From the IMG/VR virus record IMGVR_UViG_3300028048_000076: a stretch of 64,000 bases of DNA, one strand, 5' to 3'. Position 1 is the first letter of the stretch. Each line of letters begins with the position of its first letter. Made by a program: the position numbers and the translations under genes. Of the stretch, positions 1,010-59,575 are shown piece by piece. The stretch comes from a virus (taxonomy: Duplodnaviria > Heunggongvirae > Uroviricota > Caudoviricetes). Below the pieces are notes generated by a model that ran no database searches, had not been told where the DNA came from, and was given only the letters and a program-made list of their open reading frames with translations.

Positions 1010-3262
1010 GTGAAAGAAAATGATGTACTCTCTTTAAGAGAACTATTTAATAAATTAAACCAACAGCAGACAGTATATGGCGAGAAAATGGAACGCTTGT
1101 ATGATATATTTGGAGGAATTAAACAGTTTCCATCCAATGTTTCGAATTCAAATGATTCACCAGGTCTATGGCCTGATACAGGTGTAAATGTTTATGCAAT
1201 TCTCCCTGAATATACTTTGGCTGTTAAATTCTGTACTACAGGTGTATTATTTAATATTGGTCAAGGTAGGAGTAAATATCAGTTTATGCTCGTTCAATCA
1301 GATGAATTGAACCCTCGTAAGAACGGCAAGCTTTATTATCGTTATGCAAAAGTCGGTGATAATGATTGGAGTAAATGGATTCGTTTCTTGTATCAATATG
1401 AATTGACAGGTGGTAAAGATAAAGACGGAAATCCAATCCTTGACGATTTTGGCTTACCAACTACTGATACAGAAGATATGAGTCCTGAAAACAATTCTCA
1501 TAATTTTGATGATTTAGGAAAAAAATGGTTATCTATTTTTGTAGATGCAGCAAAAGAAGCAAATAGGTTAGCAGATGCACGTAAGATTGAATTGACAGGT
1601 CTTGTACAAGGTTCAGCTATGTTTGATGGTTCAAAAGATATTCAAATTAATACAAGTGCAGGACAGTTCTATGTTCCTTTGAATGTAAATTTGACAGCAG
1701 GTTATCGTAGTAATGATGAATATCATTTATTGGCAACTTTGCCTGCAAGTTCAGGAACTACATATGATTATGTAATTGTAACAGGTCATATTGGCGGTTA
1801 TGAAAATACACAAGGTAAGTGTTGGTTTACAGCTTGCATATCTAACCGTTCAGGCGAAATGGCTAATGGTTTTTATGTTGGTTCTTTAGGAACAAATAAC
1901 CTTGTTGTTTACAAAACTTCTTTAAATGAATTAAAAGTTTATTTGTTATTGAGAGGTTGGAATGACGATTGTAAAATTTCTGTATATGGTAGTAATCAGG
2001 TAGAAATTAAACATGAAGTCCAATCTTTGACTGCTACAAACAAAGTGTGGAATTTGCAGGATTGTCCTCATGTTTTTGAAAATAATGTGTATGGTACATT
2101 CCGTGGCAATGCCGATACTGCTACAATGGCAGATAATGTAAAACAAATTCCGATGAATAATCGTGCAAGTTATTCAGGTGATTTGTATGCTGTTGGTGCA
2201 AAGAACGAATCAGGTAATCAAGTTCTTCTAACAGAAAAAAGCATAAAATTTAAATCAAATGGGTATATTGAAGCAAAAGGTTTCAGTGGTGCATTGAGTG
2301 GTACAGCAGATAAGAGTAAGGTTGCAGAAAATGCAAATAATGTAAAAGTTAAAATGAATGCAACTACAAAATGTTTCTTGCTTGGTGCATCTGCGGCAGT
2401 AGGTTCTAATTATAATGGTGTTGATACAATGCCATTCTACGATACAAATGTCTATTTAACAACAACATCAGGTGAATTATATAGTAGGTTATTTAAGAAC
2501 TACAAGATGGAATCTGATAATGCAGACATTAAAGATTTGCACGTTGTTAATAAATTCCAAATTGGTAAAAAAGCAGATGGTGTAACGGATGCTGAAATGT
2601 ATTGCTTATCTGACAAGCAATATTTCCAAACAATTCGTATGGGTAATGGTACAAACGTAAATGCGTCAGTATCAGCGAAGTTGTATATGGAAAAAGCTCA
2701 GTTGATTTTTGGTACATCAGATAAACCAAGAGTAATTTTCAACTCGCCAACAAATGCCGCAGGCGGTTATGTGGGCGTTTATCCTGATAGTAAATATCCA
2801 AGTCAGGGCTGTTTGGAAATTCAAGGCTGTTTAAGTCCTACTCGTGTATATCATGCAGTATATAATGATATAGCAGAGTTGTTCCCTTGTAAAATTGAAG
2901 CTGAAGTTGGTGATGTATTGATGCTTGACCCAAATTCAGATGAAGAATTATATATTAAAAGTTCGGAAGGTGCTAAGTGCGTAGCAGGTGTAATTTCCGA
3001 TACATATGGATGTTTGCTCGGTGGTGACAAAAATATGTCGCCTGAAGAACTAAATAAAAATTATAAACCTATCGGTCTTGCAGGTCGTGTAAAAGTTAAT
3101 GTCGTTGGCAAGATTGAAAAAGGCGATAAATTAGTGGCAACTGATAATGGTTGCGCAAGAGCATATAATTCTGAAAAAGATAGTTTAGATGACGTTATTG
3201 GTTATGCTATAATTGCAGATGATAAAACAGAGAAACGTCAATTAAAAATGAAAATTAAATAA
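1010..3262 (+). CDS. large virion-associated protein, possible tail fibre / receptor-binding protein
   Basis: 750-aa ORF with GTG start. Composition is rich in Gly, Asn and Thr, typical of phage fibre proteins. No catalytic motif recognised. A terminator follows. Confidence 0.45.
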   Translation: MKENDVLSLRELFNKLNQQQTVYGEKMERLYDIFGGIKQFPSNVSNSNDSPGLWPDTGVNVYAILPEYTLAVKFCTTGVLFNIGQGRSKYQFMLVQSDELNPRKNGKLYYRYAKVGDNDWSKWIRFLYQYELTGGKDKDGNPILDDFGLPTTDTEDMSPENNSHNFDDLGKKWLSIFVDAAKEANRLADARKIELTGLVQGSAMFDGSKDIQINTSAGQFYVPLNVNLTAGYRSNDEYHLLATLPASSGTTYDYVIVTGHIGGYENTQGKCWFTACISNRSGEMANGFYVGSLGTNNLVVYKTSLNELKVYLLLRGWNDDCKISVYGSNQVEIKHEVQSLTATNKVWNLQDCPHVFENNVYGTFRGNADTATMADNVKQIPMNNRASYSGDLYAVGAKNESGNQVLLTEKSIKFKSNGYIEAKGFSGALSGTADKSKVAENANNVKVKMNATTKCFLLGASAAVGSNYNGVDTMPFYDTNVYLTTTSGELYSRLFKNYKMESDNADIKDLHVVNKFQIGKKADGVTDAEMYCLSDKQYFQTIRMGNGTNVNASVSAKLYMEKAQLIFGTSDKPRVIFNSPTNAAGGYVGVYPDSKYPSQGCLEIQGCLSPTRVYHAVYNDIAELFPCKIEAEVGDVLMLDPNSDEELYIKSSEGAKCVAGVISDTYGCLLGGDKNMSPEELNKNYKPIGLAGRVKVNVVGKIEKGDKLVATDNGCARAYNSEKDSLDDVIGYAIIADDKTEKRQLKMKIK

Positions 3263-3266
3263 TACG

Positions 3267-3296
3267 AAAGCACTGCAAATGCAGTGCTTTTTGTTT
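3267..3296 (+). terminator. rho-independent terminator
   Basis: Inverted repeat aagcactgca/tgcagtgctt followed by a T-run. Confidence 0.7.
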
Positions 3297-3412
3297 CTGA
3301 AAATAATCTGAATAACAATTTCTTACTCCCCCAATAGTAGAATTAGTATGTTGGACAACGGTATTATTTTTGGTTGCGGTTTTTCTATTCAATTTATAGA
3401 GGTGATGATAAT

Positions 3413-4099
3413 ATGTCAGATATTTCAAAAATTACTTCGGTTGCTAAACGATATGAATCCTCAGGAGATTGTTCAACAGTTTCTGATGCTTGTGGCGGTG
3501 GAGACTTGGGTGGCATTTCTTATGGTTCTTATCAATTGGCTAGTAATGCAGGTTCAGTGGATGGTTTTCTTGATTTTGCAAGAAATTATCAGAATGATGC
3601 TTTGGCTAACTATGCTAGAGTTTTGTCACAGTATACAGTAAATTCAGATGAATTTATTGATACTTGGAGACAAATTGGTTATGCTGACCCTGAAGGTTTT
3701 AGTGAATTGCAAGATGCTTATGCAATGGAAAGGTATTACAATCCTGCCTGCAATTATCTTGCAAATAATTATTATGACGTAGAATCAAAAAGTTTGGCAA
3801 TTAAGGCTTGTGTATTTAGCCGAGCTATTCAATATGGTTCAGGTAATATTGTTGAATTATTCACAGAAGCATGTAAAAAGATGGGCTATCCTAATTTATC
3901 ATATGTGAATGATTCCGACTATGATTATGATTTAATCTGTGCTATCTATGATTTCTTAATTGAGGAATGTGATGAAGCAGAATATAATGGTAGTTATTAT
4001 CATAGTCCAAAAGATTGGTGTAATGGTAGCGAGGGAGTAATCTACGGATTGCGAAATCGTTTTGTCCATGAAAAACAAGATTTGTTAGAAATGCTTTAA
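3413..4099 (+). CDS. hypothetical protein
   Basis: ATG at 3413 is preferred over the upstream ORF-track start because of the GAGGTG ribosome-binding site at the correct spacing. 228 aa. No confident family assignment. Confidence 0.5.
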   Translation: MSDISKITSVAKRYESSGDCSTVSDACGGGDLGGISYGSYQLASNAGSVDGFLDFARNYQNDALANYARVLSQYTVNSDEFIDTWRQIGYADPEGFSELQDAYAMERYYNPACNYLANNYYDVESKSLAIKACVFSRAIQYGSGNIVELFTEACKKMGYPNLSYVNDSDYDYDLICAIYDFLIEECDEAEYNGSYYHSPKDWCNGSEGVIYGLRNRFVHEKQDLLEML

Positions 4100-4104
4100 T
4101 AGAA

Positions 4105-4152
4105 AAGGCATTGCTGATGACTGTTTTAAGCCATACAGCAATGCCTTTTGTG
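4105..4152 (+). terminator. rho-independent terminator
   Basis: Inverted repeat aaggcattgctg/cagcaatgcctt followed by a T-run. Confidence 0.7.
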
Positions 4153-4272
4153 CATAATTTGACAAGGTAAAAATCTTGTGTTATCGTAAGATAAGACCAC
4201 CACTTCTAAACCAAGAGGTTAGCCGTTAGGCTAATCTGAATGGCGAAAATGGTGGATAACCAACGCCAATTC

Positions 4273-4301
4273 TTGACATTTTTCACAAATAGTGATACAA
4301 T
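4273..4301 (+). promoter_or_regulatory. sigma70-like promoter for tnpB
   Basis: TTGACA (4273..4278), 17-nt spacer, TACAAT (4296..4301). A strong AGGAGGTG ribosome-binding site lies before ATG 4325. Confidence 0.6.
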
Positions 4302-4324
4302 TAAATCAAAGGAGGTGAAACAAA

Positions 4325-5437
4325 ATGCTGAAAGCATACAAATTTAGATTATATCCTAATGAAGAACAGAAACAATTTTTTGACCAAAATATTGGAAATT
4401 GTAGATTTGTTTATAATCATTGTTTAGGTCTTAGAAAAGACCTTTGGAAAAATGAACAAAAAACTCTTTCTATGAAAGAATTGTCAAAACACATCACTGA
4501 TTTGAAGAAATATCAAGAATACGAATGGCTGAAAAAGAGCGATTCCATCGCTTTACAACAGTCACTCCGTGACCTCGATTCATCTTTTCAACGCTATTTC
4601 AAGAAAAAAGCTAAATATCCAAGATTTCATAATAAGCATAAGAAAAATTCTTACAGAACACTAAACCAGAATAATAAAATACGTTTTGAAAATGGCAAGC
4701 TACGCTTGCCTAAACTCAAAACTCTTGTAAAAGTTAGACAAAGCAAATTTTTCAATGGAATAATCAAAAATGCTACGGTGTCAAGGACACCATCAAATAA
4801 GTATTTTGTTTCACTTCTTGTGGAAGAACAAGATGTTTTTAGAACATCACAAACCAACGAAGTTGGCATTGATTTGGGTATTAAAGATTTTGCCATTACA
4901 TCAAATGGTATCAAATATCATTTGAACACTAAGCATATTAAAAAACTTGAAAAGAAGTTAAAAAGACTTCAAAAACAATTTTCAAGAACAATGCCTAAAT
5001 CTCAAAACCACGAAAAACGAAGAATTAAATTAGCTATTCAATATGAAAAAATTACCAATTTTAAAAATGATTTCTTTCATAAACTTTCAAGAAAGATAGT
5101 AGACGAAAACCAAGTCATAGCTATTGAAAGTTTAAAAATCAAAAATATGGTAAAAAATCATAAATTGGCTAAATCTATTCAAGATTGTTCGTGGAACAAA
5201 TTCATAACTATGCTTGAATACAAAGCAAAATGGCAATGTAATTGCCAAGTAGTGAGGGTGGACACCTTCTTTGCTAGTTCTCAAATTTGCAGTTCTTGTG
5301 GATATAAGAGTCCAAAAGTAAAAGACTTGTCAATCAGAGAATGGGAATGTCCGAAATGTCATGCTACGCATGACCGTGACATAAATGCAAGCATAAATAT
5401 CTTAAAAGAAGGTAAAAGGCTACTTTCAGTAGCCTAA
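4325..5437 (+). CDS. tnpB: TnpB (OrfB_IS605) RNA-guided endonuclease
   Basis: 370 aa. RuvC-like motifs are present: IDLGI, AIESL and [12 protein letters not shown]-terminal CxxC...CxxC zinc ribbon is present. Confidence 0.9.
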
Positions 5438-5605
5438 ACCATATAAAAAACTGTACCGCAGGGCTTGCGGAATCAGTATAAAACTAAGCCTATGGAGATT
5501 GTGTAAGACGTAAAAAAAGCATGGAGTAGCCATGCTCTATGTGATGAAATCACATACGTTACGGTCTAAGAAATAGGAATCCCCCACCTGTAGAGGTGGG
5601 GGAGG
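5400..5605 (+). ncRNA. putative TnpB omega-RNA (reRNA) scaffold
   Basis: The structured region overlaps the 3' end of tnpB and extends downstream. It contains hairpins such as cccccacctgtagaggtggggg. Boundaries are inferred from the known TnpB/omega-RNA architecture. Confidence 0.4.
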
Positions 5606-5706
5606 ATGTCAAAATACATATAGATTATGACGAAGGAAGTGATGTTTATGCTTGTAGTCAGGTGTCTGACGAAAAGCCGTGTTTTACTAGATTAAGGAGG
5701 ACGAGA

Positions 5707-6243
5707 ATGACAAGAAGATTAAATAAAAAAGCAAAAGCGTTGATGTTGGGTTTAGGTATGACGATGGCTGTAGGTGCAGCAAATCATGTATTTGCTCAAC
5801 AAGAAGTTCAAATGCAAGATGGACAGAGAAATGAAATTCAAAATGTAAGCGAAATTCGTAAAATTCCTGACGAAATTTCCCGTTTTGATAAGGAACAACA
5901 AGCCGAAATTGAAAGACAAATCAAAGAACAAAAGGCAAGAGAAGAAGAAGAAAAACGCCAAAAAACAAAATATATGAATGTAGAAATTACTTTCTATACA
6001 GCCGCTGCTGATGAAGGTAGCGGAACAGGTATCACTGCAAGTGGCACATATGCTACAGCAGGTCGTACAGTGGCTATGAACGGTGTCCCTTTTGGAACAA
6101 GGGTTATCATAGATGGAGAAGAGTATATTGTCGAAGACCGAGGTGCGATGGGCTACGGAGTAATTGATGTATTTGTAAACTCCAAATCAGAAGCTTATGC
6201 TCGTGGTAGACAATATAAAACTGTACAAGTAATTTTACCATAA
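5707..6243 (+). CDS. 3D-domain protein (YuiC/MltA-like cell-wall lytic domain) with signal peptide
   Basis: AGGAGG ribosome-binding site before ATG 5707. N-terminal signal peptide MTRRLNKKAKALMLGLGMTMAVGAANHVFA. The C-terminal region has conserved Asp residues typical of the 3D domain. The ORF-track extension upstream to 5596 overlaps the IS end. Confidence 0.7.
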   Translation: MTRRLNKKAKALMLGLGMTMAVGAANHVFAQQEVQMQDGQRNEIQNVSEIRKIPDEISRFDKEQQAEIERQIKEQKAREEEEKRQKTKYMNVEITFYTAAADEGSGTGITASGTYATAGRTVAMNGVPFGTRVIIDGEEYIVEDRGAMGYGVIDVFVNSKSEAYARGRQYKTVQVILP

Positions 6244-6246
6244 CAG

Positions 6247-6278
6247 AAAAAGAGAGGAAATTCCTCTCTTTTTTTCTA
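6247..6278 (+). terminator. rho-independent terminator
   Basis: Inverted repeat aaagagaggaa/ttcctctcttt followed by a T-run. Confidence 0.7.
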
Positions 6279-6291
6279 TAATATATAAGAG

Positions 6292-7083
6292 GTGATGAAA
6301 ATGAAAAACATTGAAAATGGTTTTCAGAATATTGTAAACGAATTAAATAATTGTAAAAACAATCAGGAAAAATTTAAATTAATGGAAGAAACGGAAAAAA
6401 AAGCATATAAATTGATTGATTCTATATCACATAATCGTATATATTCATCACGAGAAGAATTGACTAATTTTTTCAAAAAATATCCTAAATATAATGCGGA
6501 AATTTATGTGTGGCAAGAAAGTTCTGATAGATATGTTGTTTCTGCATTTGGTGTGAAATTATTTACTATGGAAATATTGAGTCGAAAAGTAAAAAGCTGT
6601 GACCTTGATGGCTATAAAACTAAAATTAGAGAAACAAAAACTGAATTACAAAAAGATATTGATATTAATAAAAAATATATTGACAAATATAAAAAGATGA
6701 TAAAAATGAATTATTTTCAAAGTGTTTGTCATGATTTGACTGCATTTGAATTTTTATCTCCGTCTACTTATAGAAAAGCAAAAGACGTTTTGTGTGATAG
6801 ACTTCAAGGATTGGTAGAATTAAATTTCTCAAAAGAAATGAAATTGCAAACCATTGAAACAAGTTCATGTCGTTTACTTGAAGCAATAATGGTTATTCAA
6901 AAATATTTTAAAGAATGTTTCGAAGAGGAAGATTTTCGATATATTGAGGATGGACATTCGGAGTTTTTTACTGTGATTGAATCAATAAATATGCTAAATA
7001 AACAAAAAATTGAAAATAGAGAATTACCTGAATTTCATTTTGATGAAAGTTGGGTATCAAAGCCAACGATAAAGATTGACTAA
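6292..7083 (+). CDS. hypothetical protein
   Basis: 263-aa ORF with a ribosome-binding site. No recognisable domain. Confidence 0.5.
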   Translation: MMKMKNIENGFQNIVNELNNCKNNQEKFKLMEETEKKAYKLIDSISHNRIYSSREELTNFFKKYPKYNAEIYVWQESSDRYVVSAFGVKLFTMEILSRKVKSCDLDGYKTKIRETKTELQKDIDINKKYIDKYKKMIKMNYFQSVCHDLTAFEFLSPSTYRKAKDVLCDRLQGLVELNFSKEMKLQTIETSSCRLLEAIMVIQKYFKECFEEEDFRYIEDGHSEFFTVIESINMLNKQKIENRELPEFHFDESWVSKPTIKID

Positions 7084-7118
7084 AGAAAGAGTGGTAGAAA
7101 AATCTACCACTCTTTCTT
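7084..7118. terminator. bidirectional terminator between convergent genes
   Basis: Inverted repeat aagaaagagtggtag/ctaccactctttctt with A/T runs on both sides. Confidence 0.65.
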
Positions 7119-7389
7119 AATGTTCTACAAAAATAATTTTACCTTGTGCTACACCAAGATTGGATTTTTCCTGCATGATGTAAGTCTCAGGTGCTTCATT
7201 GGTACGGCGAGGACGATAAGTGTACCAAAGATTATCATCCTTGTCCCATTCTGCTTCAATGAATGTCATCCCTTGAGGAAGGTCAATGGTTTCAGTGCCA
7301 CCAACGTTACGTGTTATGGTGTTATCTGTACAACCGATAACCGACAATGAAATTGCAACTAAAAGAATTCCCAATACAAATCGTTTCAT
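7117..7389 (-). CDS. small lipoprotein
   Basis: 90 aa. Signal peptide followed by a lipobox-like LSVIGC. Confidence 0.6.
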   Translation of the reverse strand: MKRFVLGILLVAISLSVIGCTDNTITRNVGGTETIDLPQGMTFIEAEWDKDDNLWYTYRPRRTNEAPETYIMQEKSNLGVAQGKIIFVEH

Positions 7390-7457
7390 AAAAATCCTCC
7401 TTTAATTCAAAATGATTATATCATATTTGTTTTATGAAGTCAAGTTCAAAATGATTG

Positions 7458-7486
7458 TTGACAAAATCTGAGCAAAATCGTATAAT
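7458..7486 (+). promoter_or_regulatory. sigma70 consensus promoter of the dnaE N-fragment
   Basis: TTGACA (7458..7463), 17-nt spacer, TATAAT (7481..7486). An AGGAGA ribosome-binding site lies before ATG 7520. Confidence 0.7.
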
Positions 7487-7519
7487 AAAATCAAGAAATC
7501 AGGAGAAAGAAGGTAAAAA

Positions 7520-9643
7520 ATGTCAGACGGATTTGTAAATCTTCATGTTCATACAGATAGAAGTTTGCTTGATGGAATGATTAAAACCGATGATTTGGTT
7601 TCAACTACATTGGAATATGGACAAATTGCATCAGTAATTACAGACCACGGAAATATGTATAGTACAGTTGACCATTTTAAAGAAGCAAAGAAAAAAGGGC
7701 AACATGCAATTGCAGGCGTTGAACTTTATATGGTTAATAATATGACCGTTAAAGGCGGTTCTGAAGGTGAGTCTGAAAATGGTAGCCAACGGAATCACTT
7801 TTTGCTACTTGCGAAAAATAAGGCAGGTTATCAAAAGATGTGCCGTATTGTGTCTAAAGGCTATACAGATGGTTATTATTATCGTCCTCGTGTAGATAAT
7901 AATGTATTTGAAGAGTTTCTTGATAAAAATGAAAACGATTTAATTGCTTCCTCTGCTTGTTTCCTTGCAGGAACAAAAGTTATTCTCGCAGATGGTACAT
8001 TGAAAAACATTGAAGAATGTGTGAAGGGTGATAAGGTAATCACACATTTGGGTACAGTAGAAACTGTAAAAGCCCCTACTAAACGTTATTTTAAAGGGCA
8101 GATTTTTAAATTAAAGATTAAAGACAAGCCTGATATTCGTTGTACATCAGACCACAAATTCTTTATTCAGAGATTTAAGAATTCTGTACGTTCTGAAAAT
8201 GGCAAAGTAGAAATGAAATGTGTATGGGCAGAAGCAAAAACCTTAAAACGTAAGGATTATTTGCTTGAACCTGTAGCAAATAAGGAAGATTCTGACATTG
8301 AGTGGGAAGGTGTTTATTATAAGAGACATACATTCCTTCATTATGAACGTAAGTATTACAAAGAAATTCCTGTACATTGCCTTGCTGTAGAGAATACGCA
8401 TTCTTTCCTTGTAGAGGGTGGTATTTCTGCACACAATTGTCTTGCAGGTAAAATCCCACAACATATTCTTCGTGGTGAAATTGCCGAAGCAGAAAAGGTT
8501 GCAAAATATTATCAGCAACTTTTTGGTGGTAATTTTTGGCTTGAAATTCAGCCAATGGAGGGATATGAACAGTACATTGTAAATAAAGAACTTATCGCAA
8601 TGTCTAAACGTTTGAGCATTCCTCTTATTGCTACTACAGATGCTCATTATCTGAAAAAAGAAGATAAAAAGACACATGATATTTTGTTATGTTTGCAGAG
8701 TGGTAGCTTAATTACAGACCCAAATCGTTGGAGCTTTCCAGGTAATTCTTATTATATTATGAAGAAAAATGAAATTCTTGATTTCTTCACTAAAGGTTTT
8801 GATTATAAATTAATCAAAAAAGAAAATAAGAAGAAAAAAGCAGTGGAACAATTTAAATATGAATACGTTCATAATTATGATGGAGCAAAATTTGCTGACC
8901 CTGAACGTGTTATTGATGGATTCGTTTCTGTTGAAGACCAAGGACATTTTTCATATGCAGATTTAGACCAAAATGCTATTGCAGAAGCTGTTGCAGAAAC
9001 AGAACGAGTAGCAGAAATGTGTAATTTTGAGATTGAACTTGGTAAACATTATTTGCCTAAAATCAATATTCCTGTTGACAATCCTGAATATCAGAAGTGG
9101 ATTGATAACAAAAAGAAAAGGAATTTGCCGTTAGGGAAGGATAATGAGAATTATCTTAAATTCTTGTGTCAAACAGGTCTTCAGAAACTTGGGCTGAAAC
9201 CTACAAAAGAAATCCGTGAACGATTGGACTATGAATTAAATATCATTAATAATATGGGATTTCCTGATTACTTCCTAATTTATTATGATATTGCAAATTT
9301 CTGTCATGAAAAAAATATTCCATTCGGACCAGGTCGCGGTTGTTTTGTAAAAGATTCTATGGTTACTACTGAGAATTCTACAACACCTATTCAAAATATT
9401 CAGTTGGGCGATAATGTATATTGTCATGACGAAAATTTACATCCTGTTCTTGCCAAACATGAATATGATATAGATGAAGATATTACCGATATTCAATGCG
9501 GTGATAAAAAAATTGATGGTGTTACACTTGACCATAAGATTTTTGCGATTAAGCAAAAAGATTATGAAAATGGTAGTCGGCAACCCCAATGGTATTCTGC
9601 TAAAGAATTAACAGTGGGAGATTATATAGTTGAATTAAATTAA
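7520..9643 (+). CDS. dnaE: DNA polymerase III alpha (DnaE) N-terminal fragment with mini-intein, ending in the split-intein N-half
   Basis: The PHP-domain N-terminus MSDGFVNLHVHTDRSLLDG matches the DnaE HxH motif. The extein ends at GPGRG and is followed by C-FVKDSMVTT (intein block A). The ORF stops after 100 intein residues. Confidence 0.9.
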   Translation: MSDGFVNLHVHTDRSLLDGMIKTDDLVSTTLEYGQIASVITDHGNMYSTVDHFKEAKKKGQHAIAGVELYMVNNMTVKGGSEGESENGSQRNHFLLLAKNKAGYQKMCRIVSKGYTDGYYYRPRVDNNVFEEFLDKNENDLIASSACFLAGTKVILADGTLKNIEECVKGDKVITHLGTVETVKAPTKRYFKGQIFKLKIKDKPDIRCTSDHKFFIQRFKNSVRSENGKVEMKCVWAEAKTLKRKDYLLEPVANKEDSDIEWEGVYYKRHTFLHYERKYYKEIPVHCLAVENTHSFLVEGGISAHNCLAGKIPQHILRGEIAEAEKVAKYYQQLFGGNFWLEIQPMEGYEQYIVNKELIAMSKRLSIPLIATTDAHYLKKEDKKTHDILLCLQSGSLITDPNRWSFPGNSYYIMKKNEILDFFTKGFDYKLIKKENKKKKAVEQFKYEYVHNYDGAKFADPERVIDGFVSVEDQGHFSYADLDQNAIAEAVAETERVAEMCNFEIELGKHYLPKINIPVDNPEYQKWIDNKKKRNLPLGKDNENYLKFLCQTGLQKLGLKPTKEIRERLDYELNIINNMGFPDYFLIYYDIANFCHEKNIPFGPGRGCFVKDSMVTTENSTTPIQNIQLGDNVYCHDENLHPVLAKHEYDIDEDITDIQCGDKKIDGVTLDHKIFAIKQKDYENGSRQPQWYSAKELTVGDYIVELN
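7958..8437 (+). other. mini-intein (160 aa, no endonuclease domain) in the DnaE PHP region
   Basis: Begins Cys-FLAGTKVILADGT (block A). Ends HSFLVEGGISAHN and is followed by a +1 Cys. It is in frame within the dnaE N-fragment. Confidence 0.8.
9341..9640 (+). other. split-intein N-fragment (IntN, 100 aa) fused to the DnaE N-extein
   Basis: The extein motif GPGRG is followed by CFVKDSMVTTENSTTPIQNIQLGDNVY... and a stop codon. Its size is comparable to known DnaE IntN halves. Confidence 0.8.
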
Positions 9644-18156: not shown

Positions 18157-18645
18157 GGTAGAGTAATCGCTTAATGCCCCTGCAAAGTGTGGAAATTGCT
18201 GGAAAGTCCTAAAGTTTGCTATGCTACAACGTATTTTTAAACAGAATAGCGTGAATGCTTAAAAAATAGCAAAATGAGTCATTATGCTCTTAACGGAAAC
18301 CACATAATGATGATGAAATGGATAATCAGCCGCTAAAACCTCGTCAATGTAAAAATTGAAGGGGGATGTTCAACGAGTAAGTAGGGAACACACCCTCGCT
18401 CACACTAGCTTAAATGTATTCAAACACTTGGCGTTAAAGTGGCATTTGAGTGAAAGATATGCTCTAATCTTTATGGAAACATAAAGAAAAGGAGGAATGT
18501 GTTAAATCCTCCTTGGTTATAAATTGTTTTGTTTTGTTAAATTGTTATATTGTTTTGTTTTAAAATATTTTTTAGATTTTTTGTTGACAACTCCTTAACT
18601 TCATTATATAATATATTATATAACAAAACAAACAAAATATAACTG
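18157..18645 (+). other. group I intron 2 in the dnaE C-fragment (~490 nt, no ORF)
   Basis: Required to join ...NVELVG to LVKLDILKLSNMEAL..., which aligns without a gap to E. coli DVEYAGLVKFDFLGLRTL. The 5' end (taatgcccctgca...tcctaaag...aaacag) resembles intron 1. Boundaries are approximate. Confidence 0.55.
18584..18612 (+). promoter_or_regulatory. perfect sigma70 consensus promoter inside intron 2
   Basis: TTGACA (18584..18589), 17-nt spacer, TATAAT (18607..18612). It is flanked by the inverted repeats ttgttttgtttt (18551..) and aacaaaacaaacaa (18622..). Confidence 0.5.
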
Positions 18646-20469
18646 CTGGTTAAGTTAGATATTCTTAAACTCTCTAATATGGAAGCACTTTATGAGCAAA
18701 TTGATTTGCTTGAAAGTGAATACGGAATTAAAATGACATTGCAAGACATTCCTCTTGATGATAAAAACGCATGGGATTTAATTTGCAAATGTGATACAAT
18801 GGGTGTCTTTCAGATGGAAGGTGACATTGGTAAAAATATCATTAGACAGATTAAACCACGCAATATAGAAGAATTGTCAGCAGTAAACGCATTTGTGCGA
18901 CCAGGTACTTCAGGTCTTGAAAATTATTGTGCAGCTAAAGAAGACCATTCTTTAATTCCGAAGTATGACCCAAAAATTGATAAATGGTTAGCACCTACTT
19001 ATGGAGCAATCGTTTATCAGGAAGAAATTCTTGGTATGATTTCGGAAATGATGGGCGTATCTTTTGGTCGTGCAGATATTTATCGTAGAGCATTGGAAAA
19101 ACCAAACAAGAAGGGTAACAAGGAATTATTTGAAGACTTCTTGAACAATGGCGTTGCTAATGCTGTAAAAAATGGCATTAATGAAGATGGAGCAAAGCGA
19201 ATTCAAAAGGCGATAATTGATAATGCAGGCTACCTCTTTAATAAGAGTCATTCGATTGCCTACTCAATTATCAGTTATTGGTGTGCGTGGGTAAAGGCAA
19301 ATTATCCACTAATTTTCTATCTTTCTTTGATTAATACTGAGCCTGTTTCTAAACTTCAGAACTGTATTACAGAAGCAAGAAAACATGGTATTACAATTTT
19401 ACCGCCTGATATTTCTAAGTCTAAATTCAAAACAACAATCGAAGATAAAGATGCAATGACTATTCGTATGGGCTTACATTGTATTAAAGGTGTTGGCGAT
19501 AAAGCTGTTGATGAATTGATGGCGGCACAGCCATTTACTGACATTGAAGATTATTTGAATCGCGCAGGTAAAGGTGCAGGTAAGGGCGTTGTGATGGCTG
19601 CTATCAAAATTGGTGCTTTGGAAAATCTTCCTTTAAAAATCAACAAAGATTTCATTAAAGAGGAAGATGAAAAACGGTTCAAAGACATTAAAAAAGCCAT
19701 AGAGATGGAGGATTATGTACCATCTGCTGATTTTAGAGAAATGGTTGATGAAGTTACAAATGTAGAATTTGTATATATGAATCGTTTACAACAGGAAATT
19801 TGGTATAACACATATTTGGAAAACAAAACATTAAAATCTGTTAAAAATTATGCGTTGCCACAAGATATTATCCGTGGTCAATATTTAGATAATATTGATA
19901 TGGATGAAGTAACAGTGGAAAAAGACGATACCATTGTTATTCCTGCTGATATGCTTCAGTTGGTTGGCTATACAGAAGAAGATGTTGAGAAATTTAAATC
20001 TCGTAAAAAGCCTAAAGGATTTTTCTTGAAAGAAAATGAATTGAAAAAGCTCACCCCTGTTGAACGTGGATTCAAGGTCGCTTATGATAATTTGGTTCGT
20101 GTTAAGTACAGTGAATTAAATTGTTATCTTGAAGATATGAAAAACTTTGAGATTTCATTTATTCAACATCCTTTAGAAAACATTGCAAATATTATTTGTA
20201 AGATTGCTGAATGTTCTGATGGTAAGAGGGTTCGCAGTGCAGGTATTATTACCAATATTGTCAAAAGACAAACAAAAACAGGCAAACCTTTCTATAATAT
20301 TTTCTTACAAACGCCATCTGAGAACCAAAGGTTGACAGTATGGAACAATATTTTTGTGGAAAATCAAAGCATTCTTACTGTAAATCACATTATTAAAATC
20401 ACAGGAAAAGTGGGATTCGGTGGTATTACAGTAGATACTATTGAAGACGCAAAAGCTAACTACAAATAA
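18646..20469 (+). CDS. dnaE: DnaE C-fragment exon 3 (fingers/thumb, GVFQ and RPG motifs, FNKSHS motif, OB fold)
   Basis: Contains GVFQMEG, NAFVRPGTSG and AGYLFNKSHSIAYS (the intact equivalent of the cyanobacterial split site). The ORF-track 18679..20469 is this exon starting from an internal Met. Confidence 0.8.
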   Translation: MVKLDILKLSNMEALYEQIDLLESEYGIKMTLQDIPLDDKNAWDLICKCDTMGVFQMEGDIGKNIIRQIKPRNIEELSAVNAFVRPGTSGLENYCAAKEDHSLIPKYDPKIDKWLAPTYGAIVYQEEILGMISEMMGVSFGRADIYRRALEKPNKKGNKELFEDFLNNGVANAVKNGINEDGAKRIQKAIIDNAGYLFNKSHSIAYSIISYWCAWVKANYPLIFYLSLINTEPVSKLQNCITEARKHGITILPPDISKSKFKTTIEDKDAMTIRMGLHCIKGVGDKAVDELMAAQPFTDIEDYLNRAGKGAGKGVVMAAIKIGALENLPLKINKDFIKEEDEKRFKDIKKAIEMEDYVPSADFREMVDEVTNVEFVYMNRLQQEIWYNTYLENKTLKSVKNYALPQDIIRGQYLDNIDMDEVTVEKDDTIVIPADMLQLVGYTEEDVEKFKSRKKPKGFFLKENELKKLTPVERGFKVAYDNLVRVKYSELNCYLEDMKNFEISFIQHPLENIANIICKIAECSDGKRVRSAGIITNIVKRQTKTGKPFYNIFLQTPSENQRLTVWNNIFVENQSILTVNHIIKITGKVGFGGITVDTIEDAKANYK

Positions 20470-31135: not shown

Positions 31136-31149
31136 GGACTAATCATTAA

Positions 31150-31452
31150 GCATCAAAAAATATACGCAAGTATTCTTAAACATACTTAAAAAGTGGACAT
31201 TTATCTTTTTGGTATGGCTTGATGATTGGTTTCAAGCTTTAGTGACTACGGCTGACGAAAGTCAGACCGTAGGATGAACTGTGTTAGATGGATAAGGTAA
31301 AAACTCACCTTCGGATGTACTTTCAGTCTGTCGCTCTGAGAACTCCAATCAAGAAACATTGCTAATGTCCTGCAATGATAACAGAGAAAAGTATGACCTC
31401 CCATTTGACTTTGGCAAGAAGGAAAATTCCGTAGAAATACGAGGTAACAGAA
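31150..31452 (+). ncRNA. putative IscB omega-RNA
   Basis: GC-richer, ORF-free region ending at the iscB ribosome-binding site. Contains multiple stems, for example ctacggctgac-gaaa-gtcagaccgtag. Its position 5' of iscB matches known OMEGA architecture. Confidence 0.5.
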
Positions 31453-32685
31453 ATGTTAAAAGAATATTCATTTGTTTTGGATGAAAAAGGTCAGAAATTA
31501 GACCCAACAATTATTCAAAACGCTTGGCGATTAATTCGCCAAAAGAAAGCAAAATTAATTTCCAAATTTCCAATGGTAATACAATTAAATAAGGTTGTTG
31601 AAAATCCTAATAAAGATGAAATTTATTTAGGAATTGATGATGGTGCTGTTCATGTTGGTATTGCTCTTGTTCAAAAATGTTTAACGAAAAACAAAGTCCT
31701 TTTTAAAGGTGTAATTGAACAACGAAAAGATGTTCATAAACTCATGGAACAAAGGAGAAATTATCGTAGATACCATCGGTATCATAAATGGTATAGACCT
31801 CAGAGATTTAATAATCGTTCTTCATCTAAAAGAAAAGGACGGTTAGCACCGTCAATTCTACAGAAGAAACAAGCTATTGTTAGAGTTGTTGACAGGTTGT
31901 TGCAATGGATAAAAATCAATCAAATCCATTTAGAGGATGTAAAAATTGATATTAGAGCATTAACAGATGGATATAAGCCATACAAATGGCAATATCAAAA
32001 ATCTAATCGTTTAGATGAAAATCTTAGAGTCGCAACAATTCTTCGTGACGGATGTTGTATGGAATGTGGTAAATCAAATACCAATTTTGAAGTACATCAC
32101 ATCACACCAAGAAAAAATGGTGGCAGTGATACATTGAGTAATTTGATTACTCTTTGTCCAAAATGTCATCAAAAAACTTTTGGTAGAGAAGAACAGTTTT
32201 CTGATAAATATTATTCTTTGATTGATGGTAAGAATTTACGAGAATTAAAATATGCTCAACATGTCATGCAAGGTAAAACATGGTTACATAATGAATTATC
32301 TAAACGTAGTGATTTAATTTTAACTACAGGTTGTGATACTGCAAACAAGAGAATTGATTGGGATATTGAAAAATCTCATTCTAACGATGCTGTTTGCATA
32401 ACTGATTTAAAACCTGAAAATGTTGATATTTTGGAATATACAATTAAACCAATGCGTAGACAAAGCAAAGCAAAAACGGATAATGTTTTAGGTATCAAAC
32501 ATAGGGACTTGGTTTGTTATACATATCGTAATGGTGAAAAACATACAGGATATGTAACAGCTTTGTATTCAGAATTAAATGCGATTAATTTTCAAAGTCC
32601 AACAAAACATTGTAAAAAAATTAATGCGAAAAAATGTAAGTTGCTTTGGAGATTTAATAAGGTATATTGGTTAAAATGTGTATGA
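31453..32685 (+). CDS. iscB: IscB (OMEGA RNA-guided nuclease; PLMP-RuvC-I-bridge helix-RuvC-II-HNH-RuvC-III)
   Basis: PLMP-like N-terminus [16 protein letters not shown]...PMVIQL. RuvC-I is [15 protein letters not shown]. The Arg-rich bridge helix is [22 protein letters not shown]...LAPS. HNH is [32 protein letters not shown]. RuvC-III is HSNDAVCI. Confidence 0.85.
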
Positions 32686-32734
32686 AATGTACTTTTGTAC
32701 ACATTTATCTATGTTTTAGTAAGGAGGAAATGTC

Positions 32735-38565: not shown

Positions 38566-39124
38566 ATCATTTGAACCACAATTTGATGAAAATGGTACAA
38601 TAATTCCTAAACAGAAATTTTGTGCTAGTTGCAAAAAACGTATGACTTGTGACAAGTTATATGAGAAACAGAAAGAAAATCATTCTACTAATGAATATGC
38701 AGAAATTGCATTAGCTCTCTATTATACTTGTGATGAAGTAGAGCCTGTCTATATTGAATTTCCTATTTTGGTAAATGGAATTTCTAGCGATTTGGCATAT
38801 AATAGAGATGCGAATGAATTTCGTGTAGGTGATTGGTGCATTGTATCTGTTAATGCAGAAGGATATGATGAAGATTTTCATATTGGTATGTATTTGGGTA
38901 TGTTACCAATTTCTATACTCTCTATGTATGATAAAAAGACCACAAAAATCATTAACAAGTTTAATCCAAGCCCTGCAATTTATATACCACATTTTAAAAA
39001 AATCTTTTATGGTATGAATATGCGGTGGCAGTTTATTGATAAACCTGATGATATTGAAGGTCTATTTGCGAATGAACCACAAGAGTATTTAGATGTAGTA
39101 AAAAAATATTTACAAAAAAAATAA
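38543..39124 (+). CDS. hypothetical protein
   Basis: 193-aa ORF. Confidence 0.45.
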   Translation: METVAEIKSFEPQFDENGTIIPKQKFCASCKKRMTCDKLYEKQKENHSTNEYAEIALALYYTCDEVEPVYIEFPILVNGISSDLAYNRDANEFRVGDWCIVSVNAEGYDEDFHIGMYLGMLPISILSMYDKKTTKIINKFNPSPAIYIPHFKKIFYGMNMRWQFIDKPDDIEGLFANEPQEYLDVVKKYLQKK

Positions 39125-55712: not shown

Positions 55713-55765
55713 TATATAATAAAGGAGTGATAAACGCATTAAATGTTTTTAGGAGGAATTTCTTT

Positions 55766-56968
55766 ATGAACCCAATTAGTTCAGCAGACAAAAAGAAAAA
55801 ACTTGCCGCACTTAAAAAAGTAATGGGTGGTTTGCAAAAGAAAACAGGTGATGGCAACATCATTCAGATTCTTGGTCAAAAACCAATGGATGACAAAGAA
55901 CGTTTTCAAACAGGGTTTTTGACTCTCGACTATGCAACAGGTGGCGGTATTCGCCGTGGTACAATCGGTGAGTTGTTTGGGCCTGAATCGTCAGGTAAAT
56001 CTCTTGTTTGTCAGAAAATTATTGCTTCTGCACAGAAAATTGGTGCTGTGTGTGCATATGTAGATATGGAGCAGACATTTGACCCTATTTTTGCACGAAA
56101 ACTTGGTGTTAATGTAGATGAACTTATTTTGTCTCAGCCACGTTCTTTGCAACAGGCATTTGAAGTAATTGATGGTCTTGTTGATGCAGGAATTGATATT
56201 ATTGTTCTTGACTCTGTAGCAACACTTGTACCTGAAGAGGAACTTGAGGGAGAAATTGGCAAACAGACAATCGGTTTGGTTGCTCGTTATATGTCACAGT
56301 TCCTTCGCCGTTTGAATGTTAAGATTGCTGATTCTCAAAGTTCTGTACTCTTCGTAAACCAGGTAAGGGATAAGGTGGGAGTTTTATATGGCAATCCTGA
56401 GGAAACTCCTGGAGGTAAGGCCCTAAAATTCTATTGTTCCCTTCGTATGCGTGTATCTAAATCTGCGGAAGGTATGATTAAACCAAAAGCAGATGCAGAA
56501 CCTATCGGTCAGGGAATTCGTGTAAAATGTGTTAAAAATAAAACTGCACCTCCATTCCGTCAGGCAGAATTCAAAGTTTACTTTGATGGTCGTGAGACTT
56601 CTGAAGTTGATGAAATTGCCGATATTGCACTTGCAAAAGGTTTGATTCCAAAGTACAATGCCGCAGGAGAATTGACCCCTACAGGTAGACAGTATCGTTG
56701 GGCAGATGAACCTGAATTCCTTGCTAAATCAAAAGCAGAAGTTCCTGTACAGCTTAAAAAATTCCCAAAAGTTGCAGAAGCTTTGAAGGAAATTATTGTT
56801 AGCGGCAAATTCGATGAAAACGCTGTTGATTATGATGGTAATTCGGCTGAAAATATGGATTCTGATTATGAAGATGAAGATTTTGAAACCCTGATGAAAG
56901 AAGAAGCTAATGCCATTGAAAATGGCAGTGAAGCAGAGGAAATTGAATCTTCATTTGATGGTATGTAA
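55766..56968 (+). CDS. recA: RecA-family recombinase
   Basis: AGGAGG ribosome-binding site before ATG 55766. Walker A is GPESSGKS. Also present are VDMEQTFDP, the L2-like KALKFYCSLRMRV, and an acidic C-terminal tail. Confidence 0.85.
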   Translation: MNPISSADKKKKLAALKKVMGGLQKKTGDGNIIQILGQKPMDDKERFQTGFLTLDYATGGGIRRGTIGELFGPESSGKSLVCQKIIASAQKIGAVCAYVDMEQTFDPIFARKLGVNVDELILSQPRSLQQAFEVIDGLVDAGIDIIVLDSVATLVPEEELEGEIGKQTIGLVARYMSQFLRRLNVKIADSQSSVLFVNQVRDKVGVLYGNPEETPGGKALKFYCSLRMRVSKSAEGMIKPKADAEPIGQGIRVKCVKNKTAPPFRQAEFKVYFDGRETSEVDEIADIALAKGLIPKYNAAGELTPTGRQYRWADEPEFLAKSKAEVPVQLKKFPKVAEALKEIIVSGKFDENAVDYDGNSAENMDSDYEDEDFETLMKEEANAIENGSEAEEIESSFDGM

Positions 56969-58150: not shown

Positions 58151-59575
58151 TACGCATTTTTTCGACTGCTGAAAAATATTAAGTTAGTGGGAGGGAAAAC
58201 GAAATATGTTAAAAACTTTTAAAATTGAAGTCAAATTAAATGCAACACAAATTGAAAAAGTTCATGAAAGTATGGGAATTTGCAGATTTTTATACAATCA
58301 ATTTATTGCATATAACAAAAAATTATACAAAATGTATCAACGAGGATTTTTGGATGACAACCAAAAACATTTTTGTAGCGGATATGATTTTGATAAATAT
58401 GTGAATAACAAATTAGCACAGCAATTCCCTTGGATTAAGAATTGTCCTAGCAAAGCTAGGAAACAAATTATTATGAATGCAGATTTAGCATTCAGGAATT
58501 TTTTCACCAATCAAACGAATTTTCCAAGATTTAAGAAGAAAAAGCAAAATAATGTGTCTTTATATTTCCCCAAAAACGGTAAAACTCGATTTATTCTTTT
58601 TGAAAGGCATAAAATTAAAATACCTAAAATAGGTTGGGTATTCCTTAAAGAGTATGGTTATTTACCAAAAGATTGTGTTATAAATTCAATTACTTTGTCA
58701 ACTAAAGCAAATAAATATTTTATTTCCATTCTTACAGAAATTGCAAATAATGATAACCAAATTGTTTTTCATTCTGAAGGAATTGGGATTGATTTGGGTA
58801 TAAAAGAATTAATGACACTATCCAACGGTAAACAAATTAAAAATATTAATAAAAATAACAAAATAAGAAAAATAAACAAAAAAATAAAACGTTTGCAACG
58901 TAGTTTGTCGAGAAAACAACTTGTAAAAAGGAAGGAGTTGAAAAATACTGTTACAAGTTCTCGGAATATAGGTAAAAACATATTAAAAATTCAAAAACAA
59001 TATCTGAAGCTCTCTAATATTAAAGAAGATTATATCAATAAAAATATATCTGATATTGTAAAATTACATCCAAAATATATAGTTTTAGAAGATTTGAATG
59101 TTAAAGGAATGATGAAAAATCGTCATTTATCTAAAGCTATAGCAAAATGTAGTTTTTATAGCATACGACAAAAATTACATTCCAAATGTAATCAATATGG
59201 TATAGAGTTAAGAATTGTGGATAAATTTTATCCTTCTTCTAAAATGTGTAGTTGCTGTGGTTCTATAAAAAAAGATTTAAAACTGAAAGATAGAACTTAT
59301 ATTTGTACAACCTGCGGATTGATAGAAGATAGAGATATAAATGCAAGCATTAATTTAATGCAAGCAAAAGAATATAAAGTTTTATGATTTGGTAAATAGA
59401 GAAAACTTTATATATGTACCGATGGTTAGTCGGGAATTTACGACTATGGAGAATTATACCAAATGTTATTACTTTTTTTAGGAAAGCAGATTCAATGAAA
59501 TAGTAAGATAAAACTGTGAAGTTTATCCAAAACATCAATATATATTTGACTATATATTTTGTAACAGGAAAGATT
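58151..59575 (+). mobile_element. second IS200/IS605-family element with tnpB only (different lineage from the first)
   Basis: tnpB plus a structured downstream segment. Boundaries are approximate. Confidence 0.5.
58206..59387 (+). CDS. tnpB: TnpB (OrfB_IS605) RNA-guided endonuclease
   Basis: 393 aa. Motifs IGIDLGI, VLEDLN, a CSCCG...CTTCG zinc ribbon, and [10 protein letters not shown]. Confidence 0.85.
   Translation: MLKTFKIEVKLNATQIEKVHESMGICRFLYNQFIAYNKKLYKMYQRGFLDDNQKHFCSGYDFDKYVNNKLAQQFPWIKNCPSKARKQIIMNADLAFRNFFTNQTNFPRFKKKKQNNVSLYFPKNGKTRFILFERHKIKIPKIGWVFLKEYGYLPKDCVINSITLSTKANKYFISILTEIANNDNQIVFHSEGIGIDLGIKELMTLSNGKQIKNINKNNKIRKINKKIKRLQRSLSRKQLVKRKELKNTVTSSRNIGKNILKIQKQYLKLSNIKEDYINKNISDIVKLHPKYIVLEDLNVKGMMKNRHLSKAIAKCSFYSIRQKLHSKCNQYGIELRIVDKFYPSSKMCSCCGSIKKDLKLKDRTYICTTCGLIEDRDINASINLMQAKEYKVL

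Follow-up and report, generated by a model that had tools for sequence, protein, structure and literature searches.

The stretch of DNA analysed here, 64,000 nucleotides of the IMG/VR virus record IMGVR_UViG_3300028048_000076 (the whole of it is called the window), carries a tnpB gene on a discrete element of 1,428 bp, the ends of which were placed at positions 4185 and 5612 by comparison with a contig of a near-identical phage that lacks it. With a probability of roughly 0.8, we read this locus as a non-autonomous IS200/IS605 element of the IS1341 type, which comprises hairpin ends, an internal promoter, tnpB and an ωRNA without any tnpA, and which has inserted into a phage promoter and would be mobilised in trans, cut empty sites under RNA guidance and be read through into the gene downstream. 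The features used in this reading, including the putative transposon-associated motif (TAM), are the following.

4159..4184, plus strand: left remnant of the split phage promoter (−35 TTGACA at 4159..4164, 17-nt spacer, TAT at 4182..4184)
4180..4184, plus strand: target motif and putative TAM, GTTAT, directly 5′ of the left end (the empty site of contig L069 also has GTTAT)
4185..4324, plus strand: left end, up to the tnpB start codon (from the alignment break against L069; alignable in 13 copies)
4197..4255, plus strand: branched subterminal hairpin of the left end (outer stem CCACCACTT/AAATGGTGG; inner stem TTAGCCgttaGGCTAA at 4219..4234)
4273..4301, plus strand: internal promoter TTGACA-17-TACAAT with the extended −10 TG (11/12, the best match in the region)
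4310..4315, plus strand: ribosome-binding site AGGAGG of tnpB
4325..5437, plus strand: tnpB, 370 aa, IS200/IS605-type RNA-guided endonuclease (open reading frame, Pfam, NCBIfam and ISDra2 alignment)
5409..5612, plus strand: ωRNA scaffold, from an approximate 5′ end inside tnpB (overlap ~30 nt) as far as the right end
5577..5612, plus strand: right end (GAAT at 5577..5580, hairpin CCCCCACCtgtagaGGTGGGGG at 5581..5602, cleavage motif TCAA at 5609..5612)
5613..5632, plus strand: predicted ωRNA guide and former target AATACATATAGATTATGACG (from the IS605/TnpB rule, with the junction from L069)
5707..6243, plus strand: downstream phage gene, 178 aa (ATG at 5707, ribosome-binding site at 5695..5700; gene calls in L069 and L175)

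The exact ends came from contig L069, which was found by exact-protein look-up of the lysozyme-like gene upstream of the element. L069 lacks precisely the window positions 4185..5612, the neighbouring genes being adjacent there, and is 97% identical to the window in the left flank and 93% in the right flank (window 1550..4184 aligned with L069 1..2635, and window 5607..8133 with L069 2630..5156). The empty site in L069 reads …TTGACAaggtaaaattcttgtgtTAT/AATgcatatagattgtg…, with the slash at the insertion point, and the occupied junctions read …gtgtTAT/CGTAAG… on the left and …GATGTCAA/AATacatatagattatg… on the right. The element (4185..5612) is inserted 3′ of GTTAT without target-site duplication, and when GTGTTAT/AATGCAT of the empty site was set against GTGTTAT, 1,428 bp and AATACAT in the window, terminal inverted repeats were not seen either. 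A blastn comparison with four copies in IMG/VR gave similarity starting at about 4154–4193 and ending at about 5612–5614, between unrelated flanks. A preliminary description made from the letters of the window had set the element at 4153–5605 and proposed a comparison with genomes lacking the insertion; the empty site of L069 corrected both ends and supplied the GTTAT motif. At this site L069 is empty, whereas the window, L068, L070 and L175 are occupied. The empty-site sequence was not found in IMG/VR, and contig L061, which is about 75% identical, syntenic and without tnpB at the site, was rejected as an empty allele, being too diverged to define the junction. The window and L069 differ by about 0.8% over 1.2 kb around the insertion site (3384..6012 compared), and by 3–5% further out to the left and 5–14% to the right; the low divergence at the site suggests a recent shared origin or a recombination exchange.

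Both ends carry subterminal hairpins. The consensus fold of the left hairpin over 13 left ends has 20 pairs, 4 of them with compensatory changes, and just before it stands AAGA, at the position of the left guide tetranucleotide of IS608-type elements (AA(A/G/T)A in the family). Outside the left end, the junctions of 11 copies read TTTAT in nine, GTTAT in the window and TTTAA in L004. The hairpin of the right end (z = −4.4 as a DNA fold) shares the stem foot CCCCCAC with that of the left end, and all the copies end in (G/T)TCAA, after which the sequences diverge.

The copies of the element were gathered by scanning IMG/VR and JGI metagenomes with an invariant 24-mer from the 3′ part and by protein searches. 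At least 16 distinct right flanks were found; every copy seen is on a large phage-like contig of a gut or rumen metagenome, and several of these phage contigs have two or three copies. Among the IMG/VR and JGI contigs, miniature derivatives of about 330–390 bp were observed (L063, L065, L072, L073, L075, L076 and L082), which have lost nearly all of tnpB and kept the left end, promoter, ribosome-binding site and whole 3′ RNA (5395/5405..5612; 5445..5612 in the shortest). They are of at least three kinds: a junction 4344/4364→5395 at four loci (L063, L065, L073 and L076), a junction 4320→5403/5405 at two loci (L075 and L082) and a third type in L072. Since the occurrence of one deletion event at several loci requires transposition, the miniatures with a shared junction show classical transposition, presumably by a trans-acting TnpA, which the preliminary description had not considered. 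When all stop-to-stop reading frames were searched by jackhmmer seeded with phage Y1 TnpA, none was found in the window or beside any close copy, and over the window and the loci scanned Y1 TnpA was adjacent only to tnpB relatives of 43–61% identity. Homing would be unable to create new sites, yet at least 16 are seen; together with the single deletion junction at 4 loci, the conservation of both TnpA-type ends with compensatory changes and the two guide mismatches of the sampled empty allele, this makes it doubtful that the element spreads mainly without TnpA, by RNA-guided non-restorative homing during co-infection with transposition being rare. Points in favour of this route are that tnpA is absent from the window and all close copies, that the occupied allele is found in some and the empty one in others of a set of near-identical phages, that recombination genes for RecA and SbcCD-like proteins are present in the phage, that copies lacking the left end are retained at fixed loci in many samples, and that a review describes the concept (PMC13565253).

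The protein encoded by the 370-codon reading frame matched the Pfam families HTH_OrfB_IS605, OrfB_IS605 and Cas12f1-like_TNB above cutoff and the NCBIfam model IS200_TnpB with 461 bits (cutoff 425), and its residues 3–363 aligned with ISDra2 TnpB (8EXA/8BF8) with E = 4e-83. The catalytic triad D183, E269 and D352, aligned to D191/E278/D361 of ISDra2, and the CxxC…CxxC zinc ribbon (C322, C325, C342 and C345) are intact, and the complete RuvC and zinc-ribbon motifs that had earlier been noticed in this 370-aa protein are thereby borne out. The reading frame is kept at 370 codons in all ten full-length copies, with a pairwise ratio of non-synonymous to synonymous substitution rates (dN/dS) of 0.11–0.29, about 0.15. 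Judged from its sequence, this nuclease looks active and under purifying selection. It is very improbable that the locus is an immobile decaying relic or a nuclease-dead, TldR-like regulator recruited by the phage. Such a state would be in keeping with the lack of tnpA, with the missing left end in some relatives and with the known existence of phage-encoded regulators derived from TnpB; it does not agree with an intact D-E-D triad and zinc ribbon in a full-length reading frame, a dN/dS of about 0.15, the intactness of both ends in the window copy, the polymorphism of the insertion or the guide adjoining the right end as in mobile elements. The marks of TldR proteins, namely the loss of RuvC residues or a C-terminal truncation and a guide to a host promoter, were not found.

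TnpB proteins close to this one form a large clade; of the 120 clusters listed, most by far were at least 79% identical, and all of them were metagenomic. Many contigs of this clade with tnpB are about 1.4 kb long, as would be expected if a repeat interrupts assembly. Relatives at 70–75% identity also lack tnpA; they come from rumen and gut data sets, where they lie on phage-like contigs of 150 kb. A megablast of 3300..6400 against GenBank phages found nothing, and distant blastn gave only short matches of 67–75% inside tnpB. GTDB genomes contained no close copy; full-length matches there were at most 50% identical in amino acids, the best segment was 61% (L048), and short contig-end fragments (for example, from Kandleria) reached 63–78%. 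Neither a bacterial source nor a cognate tnpA emerged from these genomes.

The RNA encoded at the 3′ side of tnpB showed strong signs of a conserved structure. The consensus fold of 16 distinct aligned copies has 8 helices and 48 pairs with 97.9% of the cells paired, values that were reached by 0 of 500 shuffles, and slid controls paired at 33–40%. Changes on both sides were seen in 11 pairs (for example, GUGAU/AUCAC versus GCGGU/ACCGC, and CCGC…GCGG versus CCGU…ACGG). A long-range stem, AGCCUAUGGAGAUUGUGU … ACGGUCU…AUAGG, encloses two hairpins, and the minimum free energy of the 3′ RNA of the window itself has z = −7.3. From copy to copy, entire hairpins are present or absent around an unchanging long-range core, as is usual for functional RNAs. 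The profile built from the 16 copies matched 5409..5612 and nothing else in the window. The hairpin-rich 3′ flank had been put forward as a putative omega-RNA with structure prediction as its check, and the covariation in 16 copies and the folding energy uphold it. In Rfam, no family matched the 3′ RNA of this element at gathering score; 5489..5579 scored 17.7 bits with RAGATH-18 against a gathering score of 44.9 and so falls below membership, and matches such as CRISPR-DR9 were rejected as representing just the hairpin.

In TnpB elements of the IS605 kind, the guide is the flank directly past the right end. By this rule, the guide is predicted to be the 16–20 nt past 5612 (AAUACAUAUAGAUUAU…), with the TAM being the TTAT/TTTAT motif of the left flank. 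The first 3 nt of the predicted guide are the second half of the split −10 box, and at the right junction TCAA stands where the TAM would be. The sole other 17/20 match to the guide in the window, at 38915..38934 on the minus strand, keeps TTAT and has three guide mismatches.

In the mechanism that we propose, single-stranded DNA of the element would be moved by a Y1 TnpA acting in trans, whose source may be the host, a different element or phage sequence outside the part seen here. This TnpA would read the subterminal hairpins of both ends together with the cleavage sites TTAT/TCAA. The internal promoter would give a tnpB–ωRNA transcript that is processed into an ωRNA with the 16–20 nt past the right end as its guide. 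The TnpB–ωRNA complex would then cut TTAT + AATACATATAGATTAT… (AATACATATAG…) in element-free DNA only, whether left after excision or present in a co-infecting relative, and recombinational repair from an occupied copy would restore or spread the element. Such homing or retention by cutting of empty sites is, in our view, the most likely role of the nuclease. At the same time, the internal promoter, perhaps along with the TTGACA-17-TATCGT hybrid at the left junction, would read through the terminator-less right end into the downstream gene and replace its destroyed promoter.

Several observations weigh against this reading. The empty allele in L069 mismatches the predicted guide at positions 4 and 15 and might not be cut by this copy, and the TAM here is GTTAT where the consensus is TTTAT. 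Furthermore, many relatives, among them L002, L071, L179, L189 and L088, have no left end and lie directly behind an external promoter, so part of the family is no longer a substrate of TnpA. In addition, the element-carrying contigs were not among the best 80 of 244 matches in a scan of IMG/VR for TnpA. An escape mutation in the protospacer, suggested by 2 mismatches in 20 nt within a 1.2-kb tract at 0.8% (p ≈ 0.01), was considered and dropped; set against the intergenic background (5 in 179 nt), the same mismatches are not significant (about 0.1).

Some further arrangements were seen among the copies. The external promoters ahead of the left-end-less tnpB genes are perfect or near-perfect, and many gut samples share one locus of this kind. 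In L090, where the internal promoter is destroyed by a spacer deletion, an upstream TTGACA-17-TACAAT substitutes for it, and L088 has three tnpB genes within 5 kb. Two contigs of the sample ERZ27252073 both break inside the element, L068 (k141_561328, 241 kb) and L175 (k141_282527, 206 kb), which explains why a look-up of the exact TnpB protein in the gene-position index found nothing. L068 is identical to the window up to 5079 and continues as an L004-like copy with its flank, a switch that points to a chimeric assembly or to recombination between copies. L175 agrees with the window from 5336 onwards; should both contigs be parts of a single genome, the phage would be about 450 kb.

The downstream gene was served by a perfect TTGACA-17-TATAAT promoter, and the element is inserted halfway through its −10 hexamer. 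Removal of the element in silico, compared with L069, restored a 12/12 promoter, and TTGACAaggtaaaattcttgtgtTAT/AATgc of the empty allele reads as the same perfect 12/12 promoter. The downstream gene has lost its own promoter through the insertion, and the left junction is now a hybrid TTGACA-17-TATCGT with TG upstream. The TTGACA-17-TACAAT promoter that had been attributed to tnpB itself was found at 4273..4301; it is conserved in 11 of 13 left ends, the exceptions being L003 with a divergent −10 and L090, and it is present in the miniature copies as well as in those full-length ones whose left end is retained. No plus-strand terminator was found between 5437 and 5707. The neighbour had been described as a 3D-domain cell-wall hydrolase gene into whose ribosome-binding site the 3′ flank runs. 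The gene is there, on the plus strand; its 3D assignment is weak (Pfam 3D at E = 0.0098, below cutoff, with a weak match to the EntB/EntD C-terminus), and 83 nt separate the end of the element from the ribosome-binding site (5695..5700). The GTG at 5596 was rejected as the start of this gene, as it lies inside the element and ATG 5707 is called in L069.

Similar relations to promoters were seen at other sites. The element is co-oriented with its neighbours at 14 of 16 sites, and when the flanks of ten copies were joined, a perfect 12/12 TTGACA-17-TATAAT appeared in three, the insertion being in the spacer in L063, in the −10 box in the window and at about +2 in L003 (positions of about −16, −9 and +2 relative to the transcription start were estimated by hand). 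The joined flanks of L001, read by eye, give TTGAAA-17-TATAAA (10/12), which the scripted scan had rejected as its −10 does not end in T. The enrichment of promoter sites over intergenic space has a p of only about 0.02 by a rough estimate. A preference for, or survival in, promoter cores with promoter replacement is therefore taken as a lead and not as a result. Exposure of single-stranded DNA in the open complex was considered as a reason for the promoter hits and is unlikely, as sigma holds the non-template −10 strand that bears TTAT; the tolerance of intergenic insertions and a target motif containing TAT account for the pattern more simply.

The insertion could also be kept because the phage depends on the replacement promoter, with precise loss being tolerated, imprecise loss not, and the nuclease being secondary. 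The split −10 box, the conserved internal promoter, the lack of a terminator ahead of the downstream gene, the co-directional orientation at 14 of 16 sites, the perfect promoter at 3 of 10 reconstructed sites with near-consensus L001 as a fourth, and the occurrence in L178 of a solo left end, promoter included, ahead of a gene are all in line with such a dependence; we nevertheless regard it as unlikely, as precise excision restores a stronger promoter and the dependence would thus be weak, and as a promoter role alone leaves the purifying and structural selection on tnpB and the ωRNA unexplained. The solo left end of L178 lies just past a tRNA gene. A wider picture, which we offer only as speculation and would not expect to hold in full, is that of a phage-adapted lineage of transposase-less TnpB elements that settle preferentially in perfect sigma-70-type promoter cores, substitute their own promoter and persist or spread by RNA-guided cutting of unoccupied alleles in co-infecting large phages, the miniature cassettes providing extra guides for TnpB acting in trans.

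Two more nuclease genes of the obligate mobile element-guided activity (OMEGA) type are present in the window.

58206..59387: second TnpB, 32% identical to the first, with an intact triad
31453..32685: IscB, passing the NCBIfam model guided_IscB

The insertion with the second tnpB (window 58198..59557) is missing from near-identical L177 (4861..4874), and a RAGATH-18 RNA follows the gene at 59443..59506 with 60 bits against the gathering score of 44.9. In L177, an 85-aa gene leads directly to an ART-PolyVal gene, the junction being inside the ribosome-binding site of the latter. The second tnpB starts only about 10 nt past the left junction, too close for a normal left end with its hairpin to fit in between, and it seems to use the captured ribosome-binding site. 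The iscB gene is part of an insertion of about 1,587 bp (31138..32724) between a 133-aa gene and a 687-aa SbcC-like gene and is missing from L191–L194, where the 133-aa gene runs straight into the 687-aa gene (L191 3898..3904); the shorter contigs L195–L197 have the same 12-nt spacing to a truncated downstream reading frame and probably lack it as well, these contigs coming from several samples. GTAAGG occurs at both junctions of the IscB insertion. A HEARO-like match upstream of IscB (31229..31429) reached 18.4 bits, far below the gathering score of 83, and no recombinase domains were found in the reading frames adjoining the second TnpB and IscB. The earlier statements that the second TnpB is of a different lineage and that the window holds three OMEGA nucleases without tnpA are consistent with the 32% identity, with the three confirmed genes and with the absence of Y1 TnpA from any frame of the window. 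The proposed colonisation of the phage gained support from each OMEGA gene being a presence/absence polymorphism among near-identical contigs. Fixed, non-mobile paralogs with degenerate RNAs had been named as the opposite possibility; what was found is polymorphism, compensatory changes in the RNA and at least 16 sites.

The window was taken as phage on the basis of PHROG matches, gene content and relatives in IMG/VR. Its proteins matched tail and DNA-polymerase families in PHROG, its genes include RecA, PhoH, primase and a DnaE broken by inteins and a group I intron, and relatives of the window are present in IMG/VR; it looks like part of a large phage. Ten more perfect TTGACA-N17-TATAAT promoters were found in the window against 0.23 expected by chance, all with 17-nt spacing, and the promoter split by the element would be the eleventh.

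7458, 11976, 14133, 15658, 18584, 39133, 51601 and 57016, and 49170 and 50759 on the minus strand: perfect promoters from the scan of the window

The gene for DnaE (Pol III alpha) is broken into at least three pieces (7520..9643, 17707..18174 and 18679..20469). In the first, the PHP domain carries an intein and a second Hint module reaches the end of the reading frame, and between the first and second pieces lies an 8-kb block of about ten genes, including those for an SPFH/flotillin protein and, at 15776..16939, for an endonuclease-like protein with DUF7487+DUF559. The region also has a group I intron (18107..18486), and the pieces may form a split-intein or trans-splicing arrangement. In L177, which is 93–96% identical to the window, RecA is in pieces of 222 and 173 aa with a 349-aa reading frame between them that has faint helix-turn-helix matches (L177 1076..3707 compared with window 55727..56968), whereas RecA of the window is intact (413 aa); the 349-aa reading frame is probably another mobile intervening element. 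Two genes in window 6292..7389 are missing from syntenic L061 (7797..7938), one of 263 aa that matched no family and one of 90 aa on the minus strand, the product of which resembles a small lipoprotein when judged by eye. L061 has instead, between its lysozyme-like and 3D-like genes, a 560-bp region free of reading frames, which holds a perfect TTGACA-17-TATAAT promoter at about 6774..6802.

The locus is an IS1341-type, TnpB-only IS200/IS605 element with an ωRNA, an ordinary example of a known element type; it is not a new type of system, and the understanding of TnpB elements is unchanged by it. TnpB is often annotated in phage genomes, where its role is mostly guesswork. In near-identical phages, this locus supplies a natural pair of alleles, one occupied and one empty, with exactly known limits, and its TAM, guide, ωRNA and both transposon ends can be read straight from the sequence, so that homing or retention under RNA guidance could be tested directly in co-infecting phages. 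It also yields a compact 370-aa TnpB with a likely TAM of TTTAT, as predicted, and its insertion into a consensus promoter while carrying an outward-reading promoter of its own illustrates the life of such elements in tightly packed phage genomes.

When compared with the TnpB–ωRNA of ISDra2 from Deinococcus radiodurans (8EXA/8BF8/8H1J), the D/E/D and CxxC…CxxC positions of the phage protein are the same, and in both the ωRNA is encoded at the 3′ side, overlaps the end of the reading frame and stops at the right end, with the TAM 5′ of the left end. Unlike ISDra2, which has tnpA, the phage element lacks it, has a consensus promoter directly upstream of tnpB and resides in a phage genome, and its TnpB is about 38 aa shorter at the C-terminus. 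The TAM of ISDra2 is TTGAT, compared with a predicted T(T/G)TAT in the phage element. Its RNA resembles RAGATH-18 (Rfam RF03064) in lying 3′ of an IS605-type tnpB and in the layout of outer stem, GGAG and inner stem; unlike the RNA after the second TnpB, which is a member, it scores below the Rfam criterion.

IS608 of Helicobacter pylori has GAAT as its right guide and TCAA as its right cleavage site (PMC5934647), and both the TCAA site and the GAAT 5′ of the right hairpin are identical in the phage element, which also agrees with IS608 in having no inverted repeats or target duplication, in inserting 3′ of a tetranucleotide and in having hairpins at both ends. The two differ in the left target (TTAT/TTTAT here, TTAC in IS608), in the motif before the left hairpin (AA(N)A here, AAAG in IS608), in the left hairpin, which is long and branched in the phage element, and in the absence of tnpA. 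Elements with tnpB only make up the IS1341 group (PMC13565253), and the phage element shows its traits, namely TnpB without TnpA, motif-specific insertion without duplication, subterminal hairpins and occurrence at multiple loci. Like the IS1341 miniatures, which resemble palindrome-associated or miniature inverted-repeat transposable elements (PATE/MITE), its short derivatives keep the ends; unlike those miniatures, which keep only the ends, they retain the internal promoter and the whole ωRNA as well and are thus promoter–ωRNA cassettes. Homing by an RNA-guided nuclease into a co-infecting relative, and retention after excision, have been outlined for such elements (PMC13565253). In this respect, the element is comparable to the Seg/Mob homing endonuclease genes of T4-like phages, being a polymorphic selfish nuclease gene between conserved phage genes that is expected to cut the allele without the nuclease gene during co-infection; it differs from them in that its target would be read by an RNA guide and a TAM and not by protein, and in that it has defined transposon ends and transposes.

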